Positions 11,272 through 45,823 of a stretch of 64,000 nt of DNA are shown here, one piece after another. Made by a program: the position numbers and the translations under genes. Numbering within the stretch: position 1 is the stretch's first letter; each line of letters starts with the position of its first letter. Source of the DNA: a virus; IMG/VR virus record IMGVR_UViG_3300020129_000672, positions 1 to 64,000 of that record. One strand, 5' to 3'. The notes beneath the pieces were generated by a model. It saw nothing but the letters and a program-made list of their open reading frames with translations, did not search any database and had not been told where the DNA came from.

Positions 11272-11882
11272 GTGTTGTACTTTCAAAAGTAGGGTATTGG
11301 CCGGTCAGAAATTGACCGTTGAACCACTGGGCGACGATGACGCTCCCTTGATACCAGTGGATTGCCCCGGACGTTAAGGCGGGCCGGGAATTTCCTTGCG
11401 TGTTGAGTCACGCCGTTGATAGGTGACGCCCGTTACCGGGAAGTCCCGCAGGTTTGACCGTCCGCAATGTCCCGCCCACGTACCGCTCGCCTAAGGGTCC
11501 CATAAATCACCCGGCAACCATACCGTCTGTCACTGCCGGTAAATGGGATACTTCGGACCGAACTCCGTGGGCGGGCCGCTAAGTATTGGCCCGCCTTGCT
11601 CCATGCTGGGATTCTTGGGACCGGCCGCGTTACCGCCGTCTCCATCCGTTACCCAGAGTTTGTAAAGAACCACCACGTTGCCGGAGACCGACCGAAGCCG
11701 AATCCCGACACCTTATCCACGTAAATGGGCGGAAAGGCGGGAATGGCAGAGGGAAGGGAGGGAAAGGATGCACATATCAGGATGGGGAGATGCGTAAATA
11801 GCAGGAAGGGAGGACAGGAATGGCAGAATGAGGGAGGGGGGACCGATGCCATCCATTCAACTCCCCCTTCCGGCCAGTTATT

Positions 11883-11928
11883 TGGGTGAATACACCCACT
11901 CTCAGCCAATTATGGGTGAATACACCCA
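11883..11928. repeat. tandem 16-bp palindromic repeat TGGGTG-AATA-CACCCA x2 (30-bp period), operator-like
   Basis: Identical copies at 11883-11898 and 11913-11928. Confidence 0.85.
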
Positions 11929-12564
11929 ATTACCCCCATCCAGCCACCTACCCTTTCCACACCCCATAGCAGCCCCCACCGCCTTGCCGGTCAATCCCGC
12001 TCCCTTTGCCCACCCATCGGCCTATCGTGGCCCATATGGCAAGCTAGGGGGGCAAGAATGGGCATCCTAGGAGTGGGTGAGAATGACCAGGTGGCGGGGG
12101 AAGGGTGGGGGCGGCCGGGGTGGGCGGCCGTGACGTGACGGGTCCCCCTTCACAGAATCCCAAAAATGCTGGTGGGTGTTGTTGGCCTGGCTGGATTACT
12201 GGAATTTCGTTGGCGCAAAAATTGATTGGATTGGTTAATCTGCCAGCCGTGTCTAAATCGTCTCCTGAATCCCGGATCCTGCGTCATCAGTTGCGGCTGG
12301 CTCTGACTATCAGGCCACCCTACCGGCTTAGGCCACAGACCGTCAGGTATCTTCGTCTCCTCCGCGGCTTCCAGCGTGCGAGCTCGAGATCGACCTTAAG
12401 GTTTCGCTAGCGTCCCTAGGCGCCCATCTTTCATACAGCCTGCGGCTGATCGCTTGTCGGGCGCCGCCGGCTCCATGATGATCCCCATCATTCCAGCCGG
12501 TTGGAAAGATCGCGAGACATGTGGAGTTGATCTTCAGAGAGACATGAGACATTGATTATAAGAC

Positions 12565-13083
12565 ATGACGATCTTACAACTGGCTGCGACATTGGGTGTC
12601 GCTAAGAAAACAATTGAGCGATGGGTGAAGCTCGGTCTTCCTCGGCAGCAGGTGGACGGTGTATATGATTACGATCTGCCAGCCGTTCGAGCCTGGCGTC
12701 AAACAACCACCAAGACTGATCAGACTCTTTCGTCCGGTCCGTATGTTACGGGCGTTGTTAAAAACCATTTGGTGTCCGACCTGATGGATCAGCCGATTCG
12801 GCCGCCCGACCGGATGAAGCTGCCGGTCATTCCCGCCCTGTCGGTCCCGGCCGGTCCGGACGGTCGGCAGCAGCTGATCAGCCGGCTGCTTGGCGAATCC
12901 CGGGCGCTCCTCGCCTCTCTTCTTCGGCCGCTGTCTGTCGCAGAGAAAGCGGTGGAGCAGGCCAAGACGCCGGCCCAGCGATTACAGGAGGCGAATGTCC
13001 AGCTCGCCCAGGCGGGCGGCCTGCACGGTCAGGCGCTGGCGTTGGGCGCTGTTGGGGGCAACAATCGGTGGGGAACTATCTGA
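12565..13083 (+). CDS. HTH DNA-binding protein, lambda Nu1/MerR-like (possible terminase small subunit)
   Basis: MTILQLAATLGVAKKTIERWVKLGLP...YDLPAVRAW resembles the Nu1 wHTH. Confidence 0.65.
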   Translation: MTILQLAATLGVAKKTIERWVKLGLPRQQVDGVYDYDLPAVRAWRQTTTKTDQTLSSGPYVTGVVKNHLVSDLMDQPIRPPDRMKLPVIPALSVPAGPDGRQQLISRLLGESRALLASLLRPLSVAEKAVEQAKTPAQRLQEANVQLAQAGGLHGQALALGAVGGNNRWGTI

Positions 13084-13756
13084 CAATCTGCCTGAGCGAC
13101 GTCCACCAATCAGCCTTTGGCACCCACCGGCCGTCCACCAGGTTGGTCGCTCGGCCCGGTCTGTCTGGTGATTCCACCCATATGCCGTGCGCCAGGCAGA
13201 TCGGTCGATGCTCAAACAAATGGCATTCACCACGTTGATCGCGCGCCACCCACTCAGCCCAATCAGGAAGCTCCAAGCCGGGAGGTAGGGAAATCATCTT
13301 GTCCGGCGGTTGTTGCTGACTCCACTCCACGTCTTTTAAGCGCAGCTCGCCCGTCTTCATCCGCTCGATCAACCCTAGCTTGATCAACCGCGCGATTATC
13401 AGGTGGACACTCCGCGGGCTGCGGTAGCCTAGCCTGACCGTCAGATCACGGATCGACGGACTCTTCTTCTCCGTCTGCAGCAACTGCCGCAGCCACCGCA
13501 AGACCAGCCGTTCTTTCTGGCTGATCTTCGTCCCGACCGGCAGGTCGATCTCTGGCAGATCGTTCTCTGCCACCTGCTGCTGCTCCTGCCGCACGATCAG
13601 CGCCAGATCGGCCCACCGGTAACGCAGGCGAAGGTTGTCCATCATCTGCCTGTCCTGATCCTCCCTCGAGCATTGGAGTTCACCATCGGACAGCCGGGTG
13701 AGCGGCGCATGAATCGCCAGCCAGTCACGCAGGTCGCTAAATCGCCAATCTCTCAT
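13076..13756 (-). CDS. LexA-type DNA-binding-domain protein (no evident peptidase domain)
   Basis: SPSIRDLTVRLGYRSPRSVHLIIARLIKLGLIER. Confidence 0.75.
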   Translation of the reverse strand: MRDWRFSDLRDWLAIHAPLTRLSDGELQCSREDQDRQMMDNLRLRYRWADLALIVRQEQQQVAENDLPEIDLPVGTKISQKERLVLRWLRQLLQTEKKSPSIRDLTVRLGYRSPRSVHLIIARLIKLGLIERMKTGELRLKDVEWSQQQPPDKMISLPPGLELPDWAEWVARDQRGECHLFEHRPICLAHGIWVESPDRPGRATNLVDGRWVPKADWWTSLRQIVR

Positions 13757-17920: not shown

Positions 17921-17957
17921 ATTGACGACCGGGCTTTCACCGGCGACCATCGGTCCC

Positions 17958-18575
17958 GTGAAAGCCCTTCCCCTGCTGTTCCTCGTCGTCATCTGCCTGC
18001 TCGCCCGACCGGACGGCCTGAACCATCATGGAGCCCTCTGGCAGCCTCGTACAGCCTCGATTCCGCAGGAGACCACCAACTGGGCGGTCCTGACCGGTTG
18101 CACGCTCATATCGAACAGGAGCAACGACGGAGATAGCTTTCACGTCAGAGCTCAAGGAACCGACCGGATGTTCAGGCTGATCGGCGTTGATACGCTGGAG
18201 ACCGATTGGCGATACCCCCAGCGTGACCTCGAGCAGGCCGCACATTTCCGGATCAGCACCAATCTGGTCGTCCAGTACGGTCGGCAGGCGCAGCAGCTCA
18301 CAAGGAACCTGCTAAGCAGCGGCACCTTCACCGTCTACACCCGGTGGGCTGATGCACTGGGCGCCGGCCGACAACCGCGGTACCAAGCTTGGGTTGTTCT
18401 GGCCGACCGACGGGAACTGGGGGACGTCCTTCTTCAATCTGGTCTTGCCCGTGCACATGGCTACCGAGCGGACAATCCACTAACTCATCAGTCGGCCGCG
18501 GATGAGCAACTAAAATTGCTCGGTCTGGAGCGCCGAGCGATGACCAACCACGTTGGAATATGGAAAATAAATTAA
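17958..18575 (+). CDS. secreted thermonuclease (SNase family)
   Basis: Signal-like MKALPLLFLVVICLL; DGDSFHV, RLIGVDTLET, LLQSGLAR, ERRAMTNHVGIW. Confidence 0.9.
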   Translation: MKALPLLFLVVICLLARPDGLNHHGALWQPRTASIPQETTNWAVLTGCTLISNRSNDGDSFHVRAQGTDRMFRLIGVDTLETDWRYPQRDLEQAAHFRISTNLVVQYGRQAQQLTRNLLSSGTFTVYTRWADALGAGRQPRYQAWVVLADRRELGDVLLQSGLARAHGYRADNPLTHQSAADEQLKLLGLERRAMTNHVGIWKIN

Positions 18576-19324
18576 TCTGCTGCACGCCCAAGAGCCTGCA
18601 CCCGTCAGTTCAAATCGCGGCCGCCACCCGGGCGATCGAGGTCAACCCGGTTAACGCCAACCTCGGCCTGGCGCTGACCCTTCCACCGATGCATCTGGCG
18701 CTCTTGACCGGCCGACTCTGGCCGTCAACGGGCGTTCGTCTCACCGTCTCGTTCTTGGACAACCCGGAGGCGGCACTTAGGAGCAGGATCCTGCTGCACA
18801 TGAATGCCTGGAACAAGACGGCGAACATCGAGTTTACTGAGACGGCCAAGGATGGTCAGGTTCGGATCGCCCGGACGGTCGGTGAAGGCTATTGGAGTTA
18901 CATCGGGACCGACATCTTGCACGTGCCGCTGACCGAACAGACGATGAACCTCGAGGCGTTCACCATGCAGACGCCTGATAGCGAATTTCATCGGGTGGTC
19001 AGGCATGAAACTGGCCATACTTTGGCGGCTGAGCATGAACATCTTCGACGAGAGTTCGTGAAGTTGATAGACCGAACGAAGGCTATTAAATACTTCATGC
19101 GGACCCAAGGATGGACGCGCGCGGACGTCCTATCTCAGGTGCTGACTCCCCTGGAAGACAAGCAACTGACAGCCACACCGATGGCCGATCAGCAATCGAT
19201 AATGTGTTACCAAATTCCGGGCGCGATCACCCGATCGGGCAAGCCCATCATCGGCGGCCTCGACATCGACGACCAGGATTACGCGCTGATGGGCCGGATC
19301 TACCCAAAGACGGTTTCTACCTGA
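18560..19324 (+). CDS. zinc metallopeptidase (astacin/M12-like metzincin)
   Basis: GYWSYIGTD, HETGHTLAAEHEH, SIMCY Met-turn. Confidence 0.88.
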   Translation: MENKLICCTPKSLHPSVQIAAATRAIEVNPVNANLGLALTLPPMHLALLTGRLWPSTGVRLTVSFLDNPEAALRSRILLHMNAWNKTANIEFTETAKDGQVRIARTVGEGYWSYIGTDILHVPLTEQTMNLEAFTMQTPDSEFHRVVRHETGHTLAAEHEHLRREFVKLIDRTKAIKYFMRTQGWTRADVLSQVLTPLEDKQLTATPMADQQSIMCYQIPGAITRSGKPIIGGLDIDDQDYALMGRIYPKTVST

Positions 19325-22014: not shown

Positions 22015-22033
22015 TTTCCACCCGGATGGAAAG
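22015..22033. promoter_or_regulatory. TTTCCA-N6-TGGAAAG site between divergent genes
   Basis: tttcca cccgga tggaaag. Confidence 0.75.
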
Positions 22034-22835: not shown

Positions 22836-23177
22836 ATGACACTCGATGAAATTAAAAAACTGATTAAACTCCATGTTGGTGAATTTGTAGAGTTCACTCC
22901 AACGAACGATCATTCAATTACTTCTTTAGCTCTAGAGTTTGAAAAACAGATCAACCTGACAAAGCACCAGGAACAGGTGCGGCTTGTCGCGGTCTTCAAA
23001 ATCTGGCTCGAAGGGCTGTCGAACAAATTTGCCGGTGACGGCAACATGGATGCCTATAACATCCTGAATTATATTTCAACCCGGGTGGAGCTCATTCTGG
23101 GTGGCCTGCAACAAACGACGGTCGAAGCCCAAGAGATCCCGACCCGGCCGACCTTGCCAGCCCCTCCTCAAGGATGA
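22836..23177 (+). CDS. hypothetical protein
   Basis: TTGATC-N16-TAGCCT-N7-ATG. Confidence 0.65.
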   Translation: MTLDEIKKLIKLHVGEFVEFTPTNDHSITSLALEFEKQINLTKHQEQVRLVAVFKIWLEGLSNKFAGDGNMDAYNILNYISTRVELILGGLQQTTVEAQEIPTRPTLPAPPQG

Positions 23178-23542
23178 AAGCCCTGCACGCCACGCCCCCG
23201 CTCTACCAGCGGATCCAGTTCCTGCAGCTGCCGGAGGCCGAACAGGCGCGCCAGCGGTTCCACAACCTGGTGCGCCTTCGTTGTTGCCCCGTCTGTGCCC
23301 GGCAGGCTGGCCCAGACGGACCGTTCTGCCCATTTCACCAATTCAGAGTGGCCGAACTGGAGCGCGAACGCCATGAGCGGCTCCGGCTGGCCGGCCGTTG
23401 CCAAGTCTGTGAGAGGCAGATGCGCCACCGCTCGTGCCCAGAGTGCAATCGAACGAGCCGAACGATCGACAGCTACCACGGGCTGCCCGTCGCCCCGTCC
23501 GTCCTTGAGCAGCTGATGCGGCAACAGGCGGAGGAGAGTTGA
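23174..23542 (+). CDS. zinc-finger-like protein
   Basis: CPVC, CPFH, CQVC, CPEC. Confidence 0.65.
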   Translation: MKALHATPPLYQRIQFLQLPEAEQARQRFHNLVRLRCCPVCARQAGPDGPFCPFHQFRVAELERERHERLRLAGRCQVCERQMRHRSCPECNRTSRTIDSYHGLPVAPSVLEQLMRQQAEES

Positions 23543-23567
23543 CAACCGGCGATGGGAAGCCGACAGT
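23539..23567 (+). promoter_or_regulatory. sigma70-type promoter of the giant ncRNA
   Basis: TTGACA-N17-GACAGT, same architecture as neighbouring promoters but with no start codon after it. Confidence 0.7.
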
Positions 23568-23573
23568 CAGCTC

Positions 23574-24515
23574 GTCAGTTTTACGACTGACTGTGCCGAC
23601 TCCCGATTCATTGCTCGCCGCATTAGATCTCCATTGGCACGTCCGGCCCGGGTGAGAAATCGCCCGGGCCGAATCATTTTCTTGACCCTCACTGTTTCGG
23701 AACGACTCATCCGTCGGCGAGCAAGGTGAATAGGGAGTATCAAAAACCCCATTATTCACCTGGCCGGCCCTCGGCTCTGCCAGGAGACTTGGCAGGTTCT
23801 TTGACAGGCGGTTGTCTGTCGGTCGGTCAATCCAGCTCGGACGGGTACCGGATTTCCGGTCAGGTTGGTAGCTAGTGACCTGTTGCTGGCCTCAATTATT
23901 TGGAGCCCGTACGGGTTGGATTGACCGACCAGGCAGGTCTGTGTGACGAACGGTCAGGCGCCGAAAGGTGCCACGGCTGACTTAAAATTAGTCGGAATAC
24001 CCTATGATCGTTCGTCACACAGACCTGCCAGTAAGTTAGGTCGGCCGCCCGAGGTGGCGCGCCGGCTGACTCCTTCCCGCTGTAGCACCAGGGTGTGTAA
24101 CGATCAGCGGGAGTCACGTAGAGTGATCCACCCAGTCGGGCGAAAGCCCACAACGGGCCAGAGATGAGACGGTGTCCGGGCGAATAAGAACTTGAAGGAG
24201 CGCCCGCAAGAATCTGGTCCACCCGCGAAAGCAGCGAGACCCCAGCATTGGGGCACGGATCGAAGGCTGTCCGAAAGGGCGGCAGTTCGAGTTGAATCAG
24301 CAAACAAGTCCCAGAGACAACCAACAGTCAGAGAATGGGTGAGTACGGTGGCGGCGCTAGCGGGCCGGGAGTAATCCTACCTGTATGCTTGGGATGTTTC
24401 CCGCCATCAGAAGACCAGGAACCTACCACCAGGGATTTTGAGGACAAATCCCTAGGCCAACCGCGTGCGTCGTACGGCTCGAAGTCGATCCGGCAGCAAG
24501 GGAATGAGAGTAGAG
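23574..24515 (+). ncRNA. giant, highly structured non-coding RNA (~940 nt), class unassigned
   Basis: No credible ORF. Two ~25-bp helices, nested long-range stems, at least 4 GAAA tetraloop hairpins, and G-U pairs oriented for the + strand. Confidence 0.85.
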
Positions 24516-24525
24516 GAAAGTTTTT

Positions 24526-25002
24526 ATGTGTAGAATTCAGTTAACCAGAGGAAAGTTTGCCACTGTTGACCAGCGTGACTTCGATTACCTGAATCAATTT
24601 CGTTGGTACTGTTTAGAGATGGATCACACTAATTACGCCGCACGATCGGTTAAAGATCCAGAAACAGGGAAATGGCAATTGATCCTGATGCACAGAGACA
24701 TTTTAGGGGTCGACCGATCCATTAAGATCGATCACAAAAACGGAAATGGACTTGATAATCAGCGAAAAAATCTGAGGCCAGCTACCAGTTCACAAAATGG
24801 TTGTAACAGGTTAAAATCACGCTCGAACAAAAGCGGATTCAAGGGGGTCTATTGGCATAAAAGGATCGGAAAATTTAGGTCTGAAATAAGGCTTTTAGGA
24901 AGGCGATTCCATCTTGGTTACTTCAATACGGCGCTATCTGCTCACGCTGCTTATTGCGAAGCGGCCAATCGTCTCCATGGAGAATTTGCTAGAACATCGT
25001 AA
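24526..25002 (+). CDS. HNH endonuclease with a C-terminal AP2-like domain
   Basis: MHRDIL...IDHKNGNGLDNQRKNLR (HNH); SGFKGVYW...HLGYF..A..AY..AA.RLHGEFA (AP2); lower GC. Confidence 0.93.
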   Translation: MCRIQLTRGKFATVDQRDFDYLNQFRWYCLEMDHTNYAARSVKDPETGKWQLILMHRDILGVDRSIKIDHKNGNGLDNQRKNLRPATSSQNGCNRLKSRSNKSGFKGVYWHKRIGKFRSEIRLLGRRFHLGYFNTALSAHAAYCEAANRLHGEFARTS

Positions 25003-25173
25003 CCGTAATCAGGGTGATCAGCCTGATGGGTAATCCACCCCATTCCATGGTCAGCCAAGATAGCGGAATATCTGACCGCTATGATGTTCAACATGTATCT
25101 CGGAATCATGCTGGCGCTGACGATCGTCGTCGGCCTGACTGATACGATGGAGGCGCTGACAGTCGATTGATCT

Positions 25174-28868: not shown

Positions 28869-29579
28869 ATGTTTAACACCCGTATTAGCCCGCCACGTGA
28901 ACACGTTCCTCCGGGACTTCAAGTTGGCCGCTTCACCGCCCTGATCGACTGTGGAACTCAACAGGAATCGATTAAGGGGAAAACCAAGGAACTACCGATC
29001 CTTAAAATCTCCGCCGAGTTTCCGGCGCACGTTTACAAAACAGGCGAACTCAAAGGTCGGCCGTTGGTCATAACCCGCAAGTTTACCAACTCGATGAGCG
29101 AGAAGGCTAACCTCTATCACTTTATCGCCGGTTACCGCGGTAAGGACTTCAACACCGAAGAGGAGATCAAAGCGTGGTTGCAGGACACGTTTCATACGTT
29201 GGTTGGGCGGGTGGCGAAATTCACCGTCGTCCACAAGACGCTGGCAAAGGGAGACATTTTTTCGACCTTTGACTCCGCCGCTCAGGAGGCTGGTATGGTT
29301 TGCCCTCCGGCGATCAACAAGCCGGTGCTATTCAGCATGTCGGACATTCGGATTTGGAATCCGTCAACGGCCGAGCGGTCGATCCTGCCCGAGCCTTACA
29401 AATCGATCGTCGCCAAATACGGTACGATGCTTGAAGTTTTCAAGGGCCTGCACGAAAAAGCTCAGGAGTACATCAGCCAAAGCCCGGAGTTCAAAGCCAT
29501 CAACGCCGGTCGTTCGATCGACCGTTCGGCCGTTCAGGCTGATGCGCCATTATCAGGCGACGACGACGTTCCGTTCTGA
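28869..29579 (+). CDS. putative ssDNA-binding/replication protein
   Basis: IDCGTQ, SMSEKANL; acidic SSB-type tail DDDVPF; first gene of the replication module. Confidence 0.7.
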   Translation: MFNTRISPPREHVPPGLQVGRFTALIDCGTQQESIKGKTKELPILKISAEFPAHVYKTGELKGRPLVITRKFTNSMSEKANLYHFIAGYRGKDFNTEEEIKAWLQDTFHTLVGRVAKFTVVHKTLAKGDIFSTFDSAAQEAGMVCPPAINKPVLFSMSDIRIWNPSTAERSILPEPYKSIVAKYGTMLEVFKGLHEKAQEYISQSPEFKAINAGRSIDRSAVQADAPLSGDDDVPF

Positions 29580-29613
29580 ACCACCCAGACCTCAACTCAA
29601 ACTTCTTCCTAAG

Positions 29614-31179
29614 ATGCTTAAATCTCTTGGCGTACGAAACCTCAAAGGACTGTCCGGAGACTACACCTTTACCGCCCGCGTGGTGATCACCGGCGAGGAC
29701 AACGGGGTGGGCAAGACCGCCCTCTTGCAGGCGGTGGTGCTCGACATGTTCGGCCACCTGCCGGAGCTGGGTATGCGTCCGATCGACACCCGGGAACTCT
29801 CGTCCGGCGAGGTGATGGTCGTCATGAGCCAGCACACGGACTGGACGGCCACTCAGAAGTGGGGGAAGAAGTATGAGTCGACGTTCGTTCCTGAGAGTCA
29901 CCTGCATCTGCCGGTTGAGATGGTGAGTCTCGGGAACTTTTTCAAACTCTCACAGCTCGACCAGGCACGGGCGCTCCTCCGGTGCTCGACTGATCGACCC
30001 CAACCAGCCGATGTGTTCTTCAACATTAAGACCGAGCTGATGAGCCACGGCTTGGGCAAGGACGAGCTGAAGCTGGCTGAGCAGTTCAATCCCGCGGCCT
30101 TCCTTGATAACGAGGGCGACTGGCTGTCGGACGTCGTCGACCTGGCGAAGGCTCGGGCGGCCAACCTGAAGCAGCAGATCAAGGGGGCTAAAGCCGCCAC
30201 CAGCGAGTTGGTGACCCAAACAACCTCTCAGACGGCTGATCAGGCGCCGACCGATCTCCAGCCGCAGATCGATGAAAAAGATCGCCTCCTGTCAGATATA
30301 CGCAAAAGTGTGACAGAGCTGACGGCACTCAAGCAGACGGCAACCACCAGCCGTCAGCAGATCATCAAATCGGGGACCGAGCTGTCGGCCGAGATCGAAC
30401 AGCTGAAGCGGCAGCCCCAGCAACCGGCCTGCCGGGTCTGTGGCGGGCCGATCGACTGCCCGACCTGCCGGAAGGCCAGTCTGGACCTTCCGGTCGTTCC
30501 TGAGGCAAAATTGAAGCAATTGGAGCAGTTACGGCTGGACGCCCGGGCGCAGAAGGCGCTGATCGATGAGCGGACGAAGGATATCGAGGCGATCGCCGCC
30601 TCTGAGCAGCAGGTGTTGGCCGAACTGGCGGACCTCCGTCAACGCCAAGCCCTATGGCATCAGGCGCAGGGCAAGCGGGTGGCGGCCGAGCAAGCTCAAT
30701 CAACGACCGGTACCCAAGAGCTCGAGCTGAAGGTCGTTCAGTTGTTCGTCGACCAAGCGGCGGCTAAGATCGGCCAGATCCTCAACCAGTCGCTGACCGC
30801 CAGCCTGGCGGTCGCTAATCAGTTGGTGAATCCCGTGCTGGGGTTTGACCTGCAGTATCAGGATGGCCGATTCGGCTATCTTCGCCGAGGCCGATTTGTC
30901 GGCTACGCCACTCTTAGCGGATCAGAGCGGGCGGTCATGACGGCCGGGATCGGCATGGCCCTCACATCCGACTCGCCAGAGCGGATCCTCCTGCTGGACG
31001 AGCTGGGGACAATGCGGGTCGGGACGAAGAAGAAGTTTATCGACACTGTCGGCCGGCTGATCAAAGACGGGGTGATCCACCAAATGATCGCCACCACGCC
31101 ACAGGTCTCGAAGCAGGAGCTCGATTACTACGCCGCTCAGGGCGTTCAGGTGATCGATCTGAAGGGACGACAGCCCTAA
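29614..31179 (+). CDS. SbcC/Rad50-like ABC ATPase (start revised to MLKSL)
   Basis: Walker A GEDNGVGKT, coiled coil with CRVC..CPTC, signature LSGSE, Walker B LLLDE. Confidence 0.85.
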   Translation: MLKSLGVRNLKGLSGDYTFTARVVITGEDNGVGKTALLQAVVLDMFGHLPELGMRPIDTRELSSGEVMVVMSQHTDWTATQKWGKKYESTFVPESHLHLPVEMVSLGNFFKLSQLDQARALLRCSTDRPQPADVFFNIKTELMSHGLGKDELKLAEQFNPAAFLDNEGDWLSDVVDLAKARAANLKQQIKGAKAATSELVTQTTSQTADQAPTDLQPQIDEKDRLLSDIRKSVTELTALKQTATTSRQQIIKSGTELSAEIEQLKRQPQQPACRVCGGPIDCPTCRKASLDLPVVPEAKLKQLEQLRLDARAQKALIDERTKDIEAIAASEQQVLAELADLRQRQALWHQAQGKRVAAEQAQSTTGTQELELKVVQLFVDQAAAKIGQILNQSLTASLAVANQLVNPVLGFDLQYQDGRFGYLRRGRFVGYATLSGSERAVMTAGIGMALTSDSPERILLLDELGTMRVGTKKKFIDTVGRLIKDGVIHQMIATTPQVSKQELDYYAAQGVQVIDLKGRQP

Positions 31180-44050: not shown

Positions 44051-45823
44051 ATGCCAGCCATAGCCGTACCTGTAACGGACGACATCTTCGCAAAGTGTAT
44101 CCCCAATTACTCGTTGGGGACCAAGATGTGCACCGGTCTGACGTTGACCGAGCTGTCCCCGACGACCGTTGATGAATGGACGGCCATCTATACCGACGAG
44201 AGCGGTAAGTGGCGGTTGATGGGAGCGCTGATCGAAAGCGATTTCATCGGCCGATCGTGCCAGACCCGGCAGAATACGCTGTGGGATTGGATCAGTCAGA
44301 CGGCCCGGGCGTGGGACAGCAAGCGACTTTCGATCAGCGGTGTCGACCGCGGGATTCGCGAGGTCGCGCCGTATGTGAAGATGGGCCGCAAGGGCATCAT
44401 CAATAACAATTACTGGTCGGTCACCAACGGGGCGGCCGGCGGTGGTACGAGTCCGAATAACAGCAGCACCTACACTCATCACTTTGATCTGACGAGCCAA
44501 ACGGGTATTCCGCCGGGGGATGTGGGCGAACAGTCGGGGTGGTTTACCAACAAGATCCCGATCTACATCCGTGGCAAAAACACCGGCAGCGGCGTGGTAA
44601 CGACCACCGAGTGGGAGATCTTGGATTCTGACGTGCTGAACGACACGACGGTCCGTGTCTACTGCATCGACAAGAACACTGCGAGCTTCCTCTCCAGCGG
44701 CCATCTTCAGGTGCCGATCACCGGTCTGGCCATGCGCGGCACCCCGCGTGTCAGCGACTACGAAAGCTATTGCGCGCAGGTGCCGGGCATCAATCCAAAC
44801 CAGCAGGCGCTGTTCTGGATCGATAGCACGCGTTGGACACTCTGCGTCGATGAGGAGATGGAGAAGCTGATGGCGATGATCCGGGACAATAACCCGCTGT
44901 ACAAACAGTATGGCGATGTTCCGTCGGTCGAGCTCAACCGGCAGATCCTCGAGGACTTTCAGAATCGGTTGGTCAACCAGTTTTTCTGGGGCAAACCCCT
45001 GCCGAACCAGACGGCCGAGCTGTGGAAGAATCTCGATCTGATCAAGACGCCGGACGGCGCGATCGTCACCGACTTCTTCGACCTTCCGGATACGCTTGGT
45101 CGCAACATGGGTCGTCGCGCGGCGGCCGTTGGGATGTACGAGCAGCTGGCGGAGTGCAGTCGGATCAAGGATCTGGGCGGCCTGGCGCTGAACATTCCGG
45201 AACTCCTGGGTGAGCTCTATCTGATCTGGCGAACCCGGATGGATAATCGGGTGGACGCCAGCGTGATCGAGCTGGTGACGTCTACGTCTTACGCGCCGCT
45301 TCTGCGTCAAGGGTTCTTTAACTACATGCAGTCGAAGTACAACGGGGCGATGCGGATTAATTTCGACGGCAGTGACATTCTGAAGCCTAAGCGCCTACCC
45401 GGTGGCTTTACCTTCAGCGAGATCGATGTCGATTACCCGGCGGGTGTGACGGTCCGGATCGTCACCAGCCTGGCGTTTGACGATTTGTTGGACGCCCATG
45501 TGCGAGCCGCCTCCGGCTTGGAAGACGCTGGTCGCTGGGTGTTGATCCTCGACATCGGGAACTCGATGTACATGTCGGTCCTGGAGAGCAACACGGTGAC
45601 CAACAGCTCGGGCGATCTTTCGGTCTTGAGTCAGCTCAACCAGACTCTGCTGTGCACCATGAAGGTGCCGAAGAAAAAGCAGACGATGAAGAGCATGAAG
45701 TACACGTTCGTCAACGAATGCCCGGGCGCCTCGCTCTGGATCGAGGGGATCGCCAACCAAGTTCCGGAGCATTGTGCGCCGGTCGGGGACGTGACGGATT
45801 TGGCGGGCTCGCTCAGCGACTAG
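44051..45823 (+). CDS. major capsid protein (putative)
   Basis: Synteny after the scaffold and followed by a terminator; 590 aa. Confidence 0.7.
   Translation: MPAIAVPVTDDIFAKCIPNYSLGTKMCTGLTLTELSPTTVDEWTAIYTDESGKWRLMGALIESDFIGRSCQTRQNTLWDWISQTARAWDSKRLSISGVDRGIREVAPYVKMGRKGIINNNYWSVTNGAAGGGTSPNNSSTYTHHFDLTSQTGIPPGDVGEQSGWFTNKIPIYIRGKNTGSGVVTTTEWEILDSDVLNDTTVRVYCIDKNTASFLSSGHLQVPITGLAMRGTPRVSDYESYCAQVPGINPNQQALFWIDSTRWTLCVDEEMEKLMAMIRDNNPLYKQYGDVPSVELNRQILEDFQNRLVNQFFWGKPLPNQTAELWKNLDLIKTPDGAIVTDFFDLPDTLGRNMGRRAAAVGMYEQLAECSRIKDLGGLALNIPELLGELYLIWRTRMDNRVDASVIELVTSTSYAPLLRQGFFNYMQSKYNGAMRINFDGSDILKPKRLPGGFTFSEIDVDYPAGVTVRIVTSLAFDDLLDAHVRAASGLEDAGRWVLILDIGNSMYMSVLESNTVTNSSGDLSVLSQLNQTLLCTMKVPKKKQTMKSMKYTFVNECPGASLWIEGIANQVPEHCAPVGDVTDLAGSLSD

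Follow-up and report, generated by a model that had tools for sequence, protein, structure and literature searches.

The DNA studied here belongs to a 77,210-bp IMG/VR virus record with a 127-bp terminal repeat that is rated 100% complete, which confirmed the phage location assumed in the preliminary description of this locus. Bases 1–64,000 of this record were analysed as one stretch, referred to below as the window. Judged by its sequence, the phage is very divergent. Proteins of the virion region matched no PHROG family, and the one virion protein that was searched against cultured phages (44051–45823) had no match there. The closest IMG/VR relative of the UvrD-type helicase was approximately 31% identical, and the best match of this helicase among 5.8 billion proteins was 61% identical (protein P0003, on a Logan contig). 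The closest relatives of the phage (P0003–P0006) were all located on Logan contigs.

The element described here lies in the rightward early/middle region of the genome. Its 5′ neighbours include a LexA-like repressor, a nuclease and a peptidase, and a replication module follows on its 3′ side at 29–35 kb (29203–31179, UvrD-like helicase, DnaC-like loader and DnaB-like helicase). A LexA-type DNA-binding domain (E 2.6e-8) was found in the 226-aa product of 13076–13756 (minus strand), beside the divergent region; this protein is a candidate for the repressor of the phage and may bind the TTCC-N8-GGAA palindrome described below. The early region also contains genes for a staphylococcal-nuclease-like protein (17922–18575) and an astacin-like metallopeptidase (18560–19324), the latter being an unusual cargo for the early region of a phage. 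A second long stretch without a well-scoring ORF (11287–12564, 1.28 kb) is located where leftward genes switch to rightward genes. It contains purine-rich and pyrimidine-rich tracts and the palindrome GGGTGAATACACCC in two exact copies (11884 and 11914). A second structured RNA at 11.6–12.25 kb was considered and rejected, as the z-scores were only −0.9 and −2.1 and not significant.

The element occupies a gap of 983 nt (23543–24525) between the stop codon of a 122-aa ORF (23542) and the ATG of an AP2-HNH gene (24526). The ORFs within this gap had negative codon scores, no frame was preferred and no Pfam match was obtained. That is, the gap of approximately 1 kb is not protein-coding, in agreement with the initial reading that it holds no credible ORF. 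The upstream gene (23174–23542, plus strand) encodes an orphan, zinc-ribbon-like protein of 122 aa with four CxxC-type pairs. Its stop codon overlaps a TTGACA hexamer, and the protein is a singleton that retrieved only itself among 5.8 billion proteins.

Directly 3′ of the element, 24526–25002 (plus strand) encodes a homing-type AP2-HNH endonuclease of 158 aa. The GC content of this gene was 0.42 versus 0.56–0.60 in the element, which matches the phage, and its codon usage was foreign. At approximately 24500, the GC content fell from 0.57 to 0.42, marking the edge of the HNH insertion. The 173 nt that follow the HNH gene yielded no greater gain in pairing than shuffled sequence; therefore, the possibility that the gene is embedded within the RNA was rejected. 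Because of its low GC content, its foreign codon usage and the lack of added pairing beyond shuffles, the HNH gene is a separate, later low-GC insertion beside the element and outside the RNA. A 12-nt direct repeat, AGAGGAAAGTTT, flanks the start of the HNH gene (24512–24523 and 24547–24558), and the first copy provides its Shine–Dalgarno sequence. Between the HNH gene and the next operator-promoter, 25081–25170 may encode a hydrophobic protein of 29 aa with a single transmembrane helix.

We then assessed whether the region has a promoter of its own, as had been proposed. The sequence TTGACA-N17-GACAGT is present at 23539–23567 on the plus strand with a perfect −35 box; however, its −10 box is weak (3/6, giving 9/12 overall), it is one of 41 comparable sites in the 77-kb genome, and the promoter scan did not list it. 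The proposed consensus promoter is not distinctive. The palindrome TTCC-N8-GGAA (consensus CTTTCCAnCCGGnTGGAAAG) occurs in eight copies versus 1.6 expected, and none of 100 shuffles reached eight. These copies (12491, 14187, 15551, 21340, 22016, 25175, 27610 and 28750) are mostly located at gene boundaries, and most have a TTGA-type −35 box approximately 7–9 nt downstream. In most of the promoters linked to the palindrome, a start codon follows a few nt after the −10 box. TTCC-N8-GGAA probably serves as the operator for a set of leaderless promoters that form an early regulon. The site at 23539 fits the relaxed −10 box of these leaderless early promoters but has neither an operator nor a start codon after it. 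A transcript starting near 23574 would reach a terminator-like hairpin after approximately 70–100 nt, and no terminator was found in the scan at the 3′ end of the element. Since the element is located between the operator-promoter sites at 22016 and 25175, it may be transcribed independently or, just as possibly, arise by processing of a transcript that reads through from upstream.

The thermodynamic signal of the region was strong. The 961-nt stretch folded at −453 kcal/mol on the plus strand versus −358.6 ± 9.4 kcal/mol for dinucleotide shuffles (z −10.1), and the minus strand gave a z-score of −9.5. For the core (23796–24336, 541 nt), the minimum free energy (MFE) was −273.7 versus −194.9 ± 6.3 kcal/mol in shuffles (z approximately −12.5). 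The mean positional entropy of the core was 0.39 versus 1.01 ± 0.23, which is below all 30 shuffles, and nearly all core helices had base-pair probabilities above 0.9. In a GC-corrected 300-nt sliding scan of the whole window, 23701–24200 was by far the strongest outlier (z −7.2 on the plus strand). In addition, when inverted repeats within 200 nt were ranked by length over the whole window, the two arms of the core, A and B, took the top two places. Hairpins with a stem of at least 4 bp closed by a GAAA loop were found four times in the region versus 0.09 expected, and none of 2,000 shuffles reached four. These results show that the fold predicted for the plus strand is exceptionally stable and well defined, and the GAAA enrichment together with the strand signals argues against a chance origin of this fold. 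The structural case is built on single-sequence statistics.

The strand signals were compared next. The outlier at 23701–24200 reached a z-score of only −3.6 on the minus strand. The MFE of arm A was −66.4 kcal/mol on the plus strand (z −8.1) versus −48.9 kcal/mol on the minus strand, and that of arm B was −66.2 (z −12.4) versus −55.4 kcal/mol; i.e., the plus strand was better by 17.5 and 10.8 kcal/mol, respectively. The MFE structure contains 39 G-U pairs and six 1 × 1 mismatches, all of which are purine-purine. No A-C mismatch, which would correspond to a G-U pair on the opposite strand, is present. The four GAAA-capped hairpins of the region are all on the plus strand and none is on the minus strand, whereas the whole 77-kb genome has five and six, respectively. 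The assignment to the plus strand, which had been made from G-U pairs and GNRA loops, was thus borne out. These asymmetries argue for a folded plus-strand RNA or, less likely, plus-strand single-stranded DNA (ssDNA), and the pairs that can form only on the plus strand argue against a double-stranded DNA (dsDNA) cruciform.

In the predicted fold, approximately 250 nt of 5′ hairpins precede the core. The first hairpin (23563–23594; 8 + 4 bp, base-pair probability 0.78) includes the putative −10 hexamer. It is followed by a G+C-rich GAAA hairpin of 12 bp (23644–23671, base-pair probability 0.99) and the sequence AAUCAUUUUCUU (23644–23681 in all). This hairpin with its tail resembles a terminator; it may act as an attenuator or belong to the RNA. 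Two further hairpins (23711–23774 and 23777–23795) lead up to the core. The first of these competes with a pairing of 23599–23620 with 23715–23738; this helix, which the preliminary description had read directly, can form, but only as an alternative with a base-pair probability of 0.2–0.5 in context. Around the terminator-like hairpin, the 5′ region thus has pairings that exclude one another.

An 18-bp long-range stem closes the core of 541 nt, in which 23796–23817 pairs with 24315–24336 in two segments (10 + 8 bp, base-pair probability 0.96–0.99). The parts of this stem recognized initially were present as described (23797–23805 with 24327–24335, eight Watson–Crick pairs and one G-U; 23810–23817 with 24315–24322, eight Watson–Crick pairs). 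The core holds two Y-shaped arms of approximately 100 nt and nine smaller hairpins. Arm A (23821–23930) has a 26-bp stem (23821–23846 with 23905–23930; 22 Watson–Crick pairs, three G-U pairs and one mismatch) and a tip junction with three small hairpins, one of which has five G-U pairs in 11 bp. Arm B (23932–24029) has a 25-bp stem (23932–23956 with 24005–24029; 24 Watson–Crick pairs and one G-U), and two hairpins form its tip, one capped by GAAA and the other by the 7-nt loop CUUAAAA. Both stems agree with the helices reported earlier, as do all four GAAA hairpins (23644–23671, 23957–23972, 24138–24149 and 24266–24283).

The nine smaller hairpins (24034–24301), most with a base-pair probability above 0.9, are predicted at 24034–24071, 24075–24112, 24113–24127, 24138–24149 (GAAA), 24155–24220, 24224–24236, 24240–24253, 24260–24290 (GAAA) and 24291–24301. 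The stem proposed at 24074–24112 exists, although it is weaker than claimed, with an 8-bp stem and a 4-bp tip. The box UGRUCCACCC occurs twice in the core (24124 and 24215). The 3′ region (24340–24511) forms a weakly supported branched hairpin (24340–24481) and also holds the 3′ strands of outer pairings to 23676–23707. It had no significant thermodynamic signal (z −0.6), base-pair probabilities of 0.3–0.95 and higher entropy; an 8-bp stem suggested here (24431–24453) appeared in the centroid but was absent from the MFE structure. A canonical 11-nt tetraloop receptor, a tRNA-like T-loop and hammerhead words were not found in the element, and no pairing between unpaired segments was convincing as a pseudoknot (best −5.5 kcal/mol).

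We compared the region with known RNA families. With Rfam 15, the whole window gave no match at gathering scores, and at E ≤ 10 the region and its sub-regions gave only generic long-hairpin matches to eukaryotic miRNA and snoRNA models. Because only such generic matches were obtained, the element is not GOLLD, ROOL, OLE, HEARO, pRNA, RNase P, tmRNA or a recognizable group I or II intron. ARAGORN likewise detected no tRNA or tmRNA. The suggestion that the element could be a member of GOLLD or ROOL was not upheld, whereas its novelty with respect to known families was, since no Rfam 15 family gave a full-length match. The covariance model of ROOL (RF03087) had no match in the whole window or, at E ≤ 10, in the region and sub-regions, and that of GOLLD (RF01998), whose conserved 3′ half has a pseudoknotted core, had none even at E ≤ 10. 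At the same threshold, the conserved P3–P8 core of group I introns was undetected by its covariance model. Group II introns were rejected in the absence of a match to Intron_gpII or D1–D4, and GUGYG words occurred only inside helices. For HEARO or an IscB omega RNA, the neighbouring gene encodes a 158-aa AP2-HNH protein and not one of the IscB type (RuvC + HNH, approximately 400–500 aa), and no Rfam match was obtained. A retron msr-msd RNA was rejected as no reverse transcriptase domain was found in the flanking ORFs scanned, and phi29 pRNA (RF00044) was rejected for want of both an Rfam match and strong loop-loop complementarity.

Relatives of the element were sought at several levels. In distant mode, blastn of the region found nothing in 50,697 phage records or 72,556 plasmids, and searches of viral contigs with the flanking proteins and the DnaB-like helicase retrieved no relative locus. 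Alignment of the helicase yielded 80 IMG/VR loci, the best of which was only approximately 31% identical and had almost no neighbours in common with the phage, and neither nhmmer nor blastn of the RNA found a homologue in these loci. BLAST and a single-sequence covariance model of one part of the core (R1, 24128–24301) found nothing in the five nearest whole records and 1.48 Mb of loci. A structure scan of six related loci detected no analogous island, the best candidate (L008) being coding, and a scan of the loci for GAAA clusters returned only chance clusters within genes. Exact 20-mers of arms A and B were absent from 185,579 species genomes and 2.9 million viral contigs, and an exact-word scan with a 22-mer of the junction gave no homologue. 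A degenerate two-box pattern was present at at least 119 loci, which were unrelated, and the operator palindrome, used as a lineage marker, was present in three unrelated contigs. The 18-mer GCTGTCCGAAAGGGCGGC of hairpin J of the element occurs in at least 120 unrelated metagenome contigs (L203–L322). These were rejected as homologues; they mostly show extra flanking complementarity and a T-run, i.e., a common GAAA-capped intrinsic terminator. As far as such sequence searches indicate, the phage element is a singleton in the collections searched.

We tentatively propose, with somewhat less than even confidence, that the element is a new, orphan, large structured non-coding RNA on the plus strand of the phage that acts as a folded RNA and belongs to an undescribed family. 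The non-coding nature of the gap, the z-scores of the fold, its uniqueness in the window, the strand bias, the GAAA hairpins, the native GC content and the absence of an Rfam family all count in favor of this reading. Transcription would run rightward together with that of the early/middle genes. It would start at the weak sigma-70-like site at 23539 or reach the element by read-through of the unit that begins near 22016, and the transcript would then probably be trimmed to a stable species. The RNA would function as a folded RNA and not as a message. The GAAA loops may lock a compact core, from which the two long double-stranded arms would project as binding or assembly modules; their partners could be a protein, such as a double-stranded RNA (dsRNA)-binding enzyme or sensor, or other copies of the RNA. 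As a scaffold or decoy, the element would then be an unrelated RNA of the same kind as ROOL and GOLLD. However, this reading is weakened by the site at 23539, which is not distinctive, and by the terminator-like hairpin that lies approximately 70–100 nt into the transcript. It is also weakened by the lack of a significant signal in 24340–24511 and of a canonical tetraloop receptor or strong pseudoknot. Near-perfect 25-bp stems, moreover, are unusual in old, slowly evolving structured RNAs, and this counts against a non-coding RNA of that kind.

The likeness to ROOL and GOLLD extends to the phage location, the size class (a core of approximately 540 nt and up to approximately 950 nt overall), the many hairpins off a closed core, the GNRA loops and the absence of an associated protein gene that would explain them. 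On the other hand, the element matches neither covariance model at E ≤ 10, has no neighbouring tRNA genes and is a singleton rather than a widespread family. Each arm also resembles phi29-type pRNA in having a long end-to-end helix, a three-way junction and two tip hairpins; in contrast to phi29 pRNA, the element has no Rfam match, the loops of the two arms share at best four A-U pairs, and the phage has a 77-kb genome with terminal repeats and is not a protein-primed, phi29-like phage. A more specific version of our proposal is that the element founds a new class of large ornate RNAs in phages, with a GAAA-stapled core of approximately 540 nt and two pRNA-like, Y-tipped double-stranded arms. 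Such an RNA would act in trans, either by assembling into a higher-order particle of RNA or by sequestering a dsRNA-binding enzyme or an immune sensor of the host. We consider this version possible but rather doubtful.

Foremost among the rivals is a leader or processing element that acts in cis, which we regard as unlikely but worth serious consideration. Here the region would belong to the polycistronic early mRNA as a long, structured leader between cistrons. It would control read-through, undergo RNase III cleavage in the two 25–26-bp duplexes, or both. The upstream and downstream messages would thereby be uncoupled or stabilized, as at the processing sites of T7 and lambda. Since no 3′ terminator was found, the element may simply belong to a polycistronic mRNA; it also has no distinctive promoter of its own and lies inside the unit bounded by the operator-promoters at 22016 and 25175. 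The mutually exclusive pairings around 23644–23681 are likewise consistent with a control of read-through. RNase III substrates usually comprise around two helical turns, and the duplexes of the element are longer; at 26 and 25 bp on the transcribed strand, they have the length expected of a processing site (approximately 20 bp or more). Like the RNase III hairpins of T7 (R-sites), the lambda N-leader and sib, the element lies between cistrons, is located on the transcribed strand and forms duplexes longer than 20 bp. However, known sites are single hairpins of approximately 50–60 nt that recur along the genome, whereas the element has two Y-tipped arms of approximately 100 nt in a closed domain of 541 nt and occurs only once. 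Such long hairpins are found nowhere else in the window, and hence they are not a general processing signal of the phage. In addition, approximately 950 nt with a closed multi-hairpin core and four GAAA tetraloops is far beyond known processing sites and attenuators, and the gene now immediately downstream, encoding the HNH protein, is a later insertion.

A function at the DNA level is improbable. In this case, the element would serve replication, either as an origin or as a single-strand initiation signal with hairpins that form in ssDNA of the plus strand, perhaps with the transcript as a primer. Over the whole genome, the cumulative GC skew reaches its global minimum within the element, at 23781, and peaks at 74215, where the genes switch to the leftward direction. 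The element is also upstream of the replication module, and G-T pairs and GAAA loops are stable in ssDNA too. However, the skew minimum is shallow (−15 at 22 kb versus −35 at 23.8 kb) and arises partly from the G excess of the element itself, and neither iterons nor an A+T-rich unwinding stretch was found. The genes for the DnaC-like loader and the DnaB-like helicase are 5–10 kb from the element; lambdoid modules usually have their origin within or beside the initiator gene. In any case, a dsDNA cruciform is excluded by the plus-strand-only pairs.

Slightly less probable still is a self-splicing intron that has diverged strongly or decayed, or a mobile ribozyme of another kind, tied to the adjacent HNH endonuclease. 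Group I and II introns with HNH genes provide a precedent for a large, GNRA-rich, multi-hairpin RNA beside an HNH gene in a phage, and in the present case the AP2-HNH gene lies directly 3′ of the element. Nevertheless, the conserved core of such introns was not detected, and the group I and II models gave not even a weak match at E ≤ 10. No host gene is interrupted: the 122-aa ORF has a stop codon of its own, and beyond the RNA or the HNH gene no frame takes it up again, so a split gene around the element was rejected. The HNH gene lies outside the structure, differs from the element in GC content and codon usage, and is followed by 173 nt that pair no better than shuffled sequence. Finally, arms A and B, each of approximately 100 nt with 25–26-bp terminal inverted repeats, fall in the size range of miniature inverted-repeat transposable elements (MITEs) such as Correia elements, but two adjacent host-derived MITE- or REP-like palindromes of selfish DNA with no RNA function are very improbable, as each arm is single-copy in the phage, the exact-word searches with arm 20-mers in species genomes and viral contigs were negative, and the G-U asymmetry, the GAAA loops and the enclosing long-range stem would be left unexplained.

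Bacteria and phages are known to carry only a handful of elaborately folded RNAs of more than 500 nt, the functions of which are mostly open; ROOL and GOLLD were recently shown to form RNA-only cages. As the element can be synthesized, in vitro transcription, probing and cryo-EM are feasible without the host. Should the element instead serve in processing or attenuation, it would be unusually elaborate for such a module. If our proposal of a large structured non-coding RNA is true, the core would be a compact and well-defined target for structural work, and the element would add a further, unrelated large RNA in a deeply divergent phage, which would show that RNAs of this type arise repeatedly in viruses.
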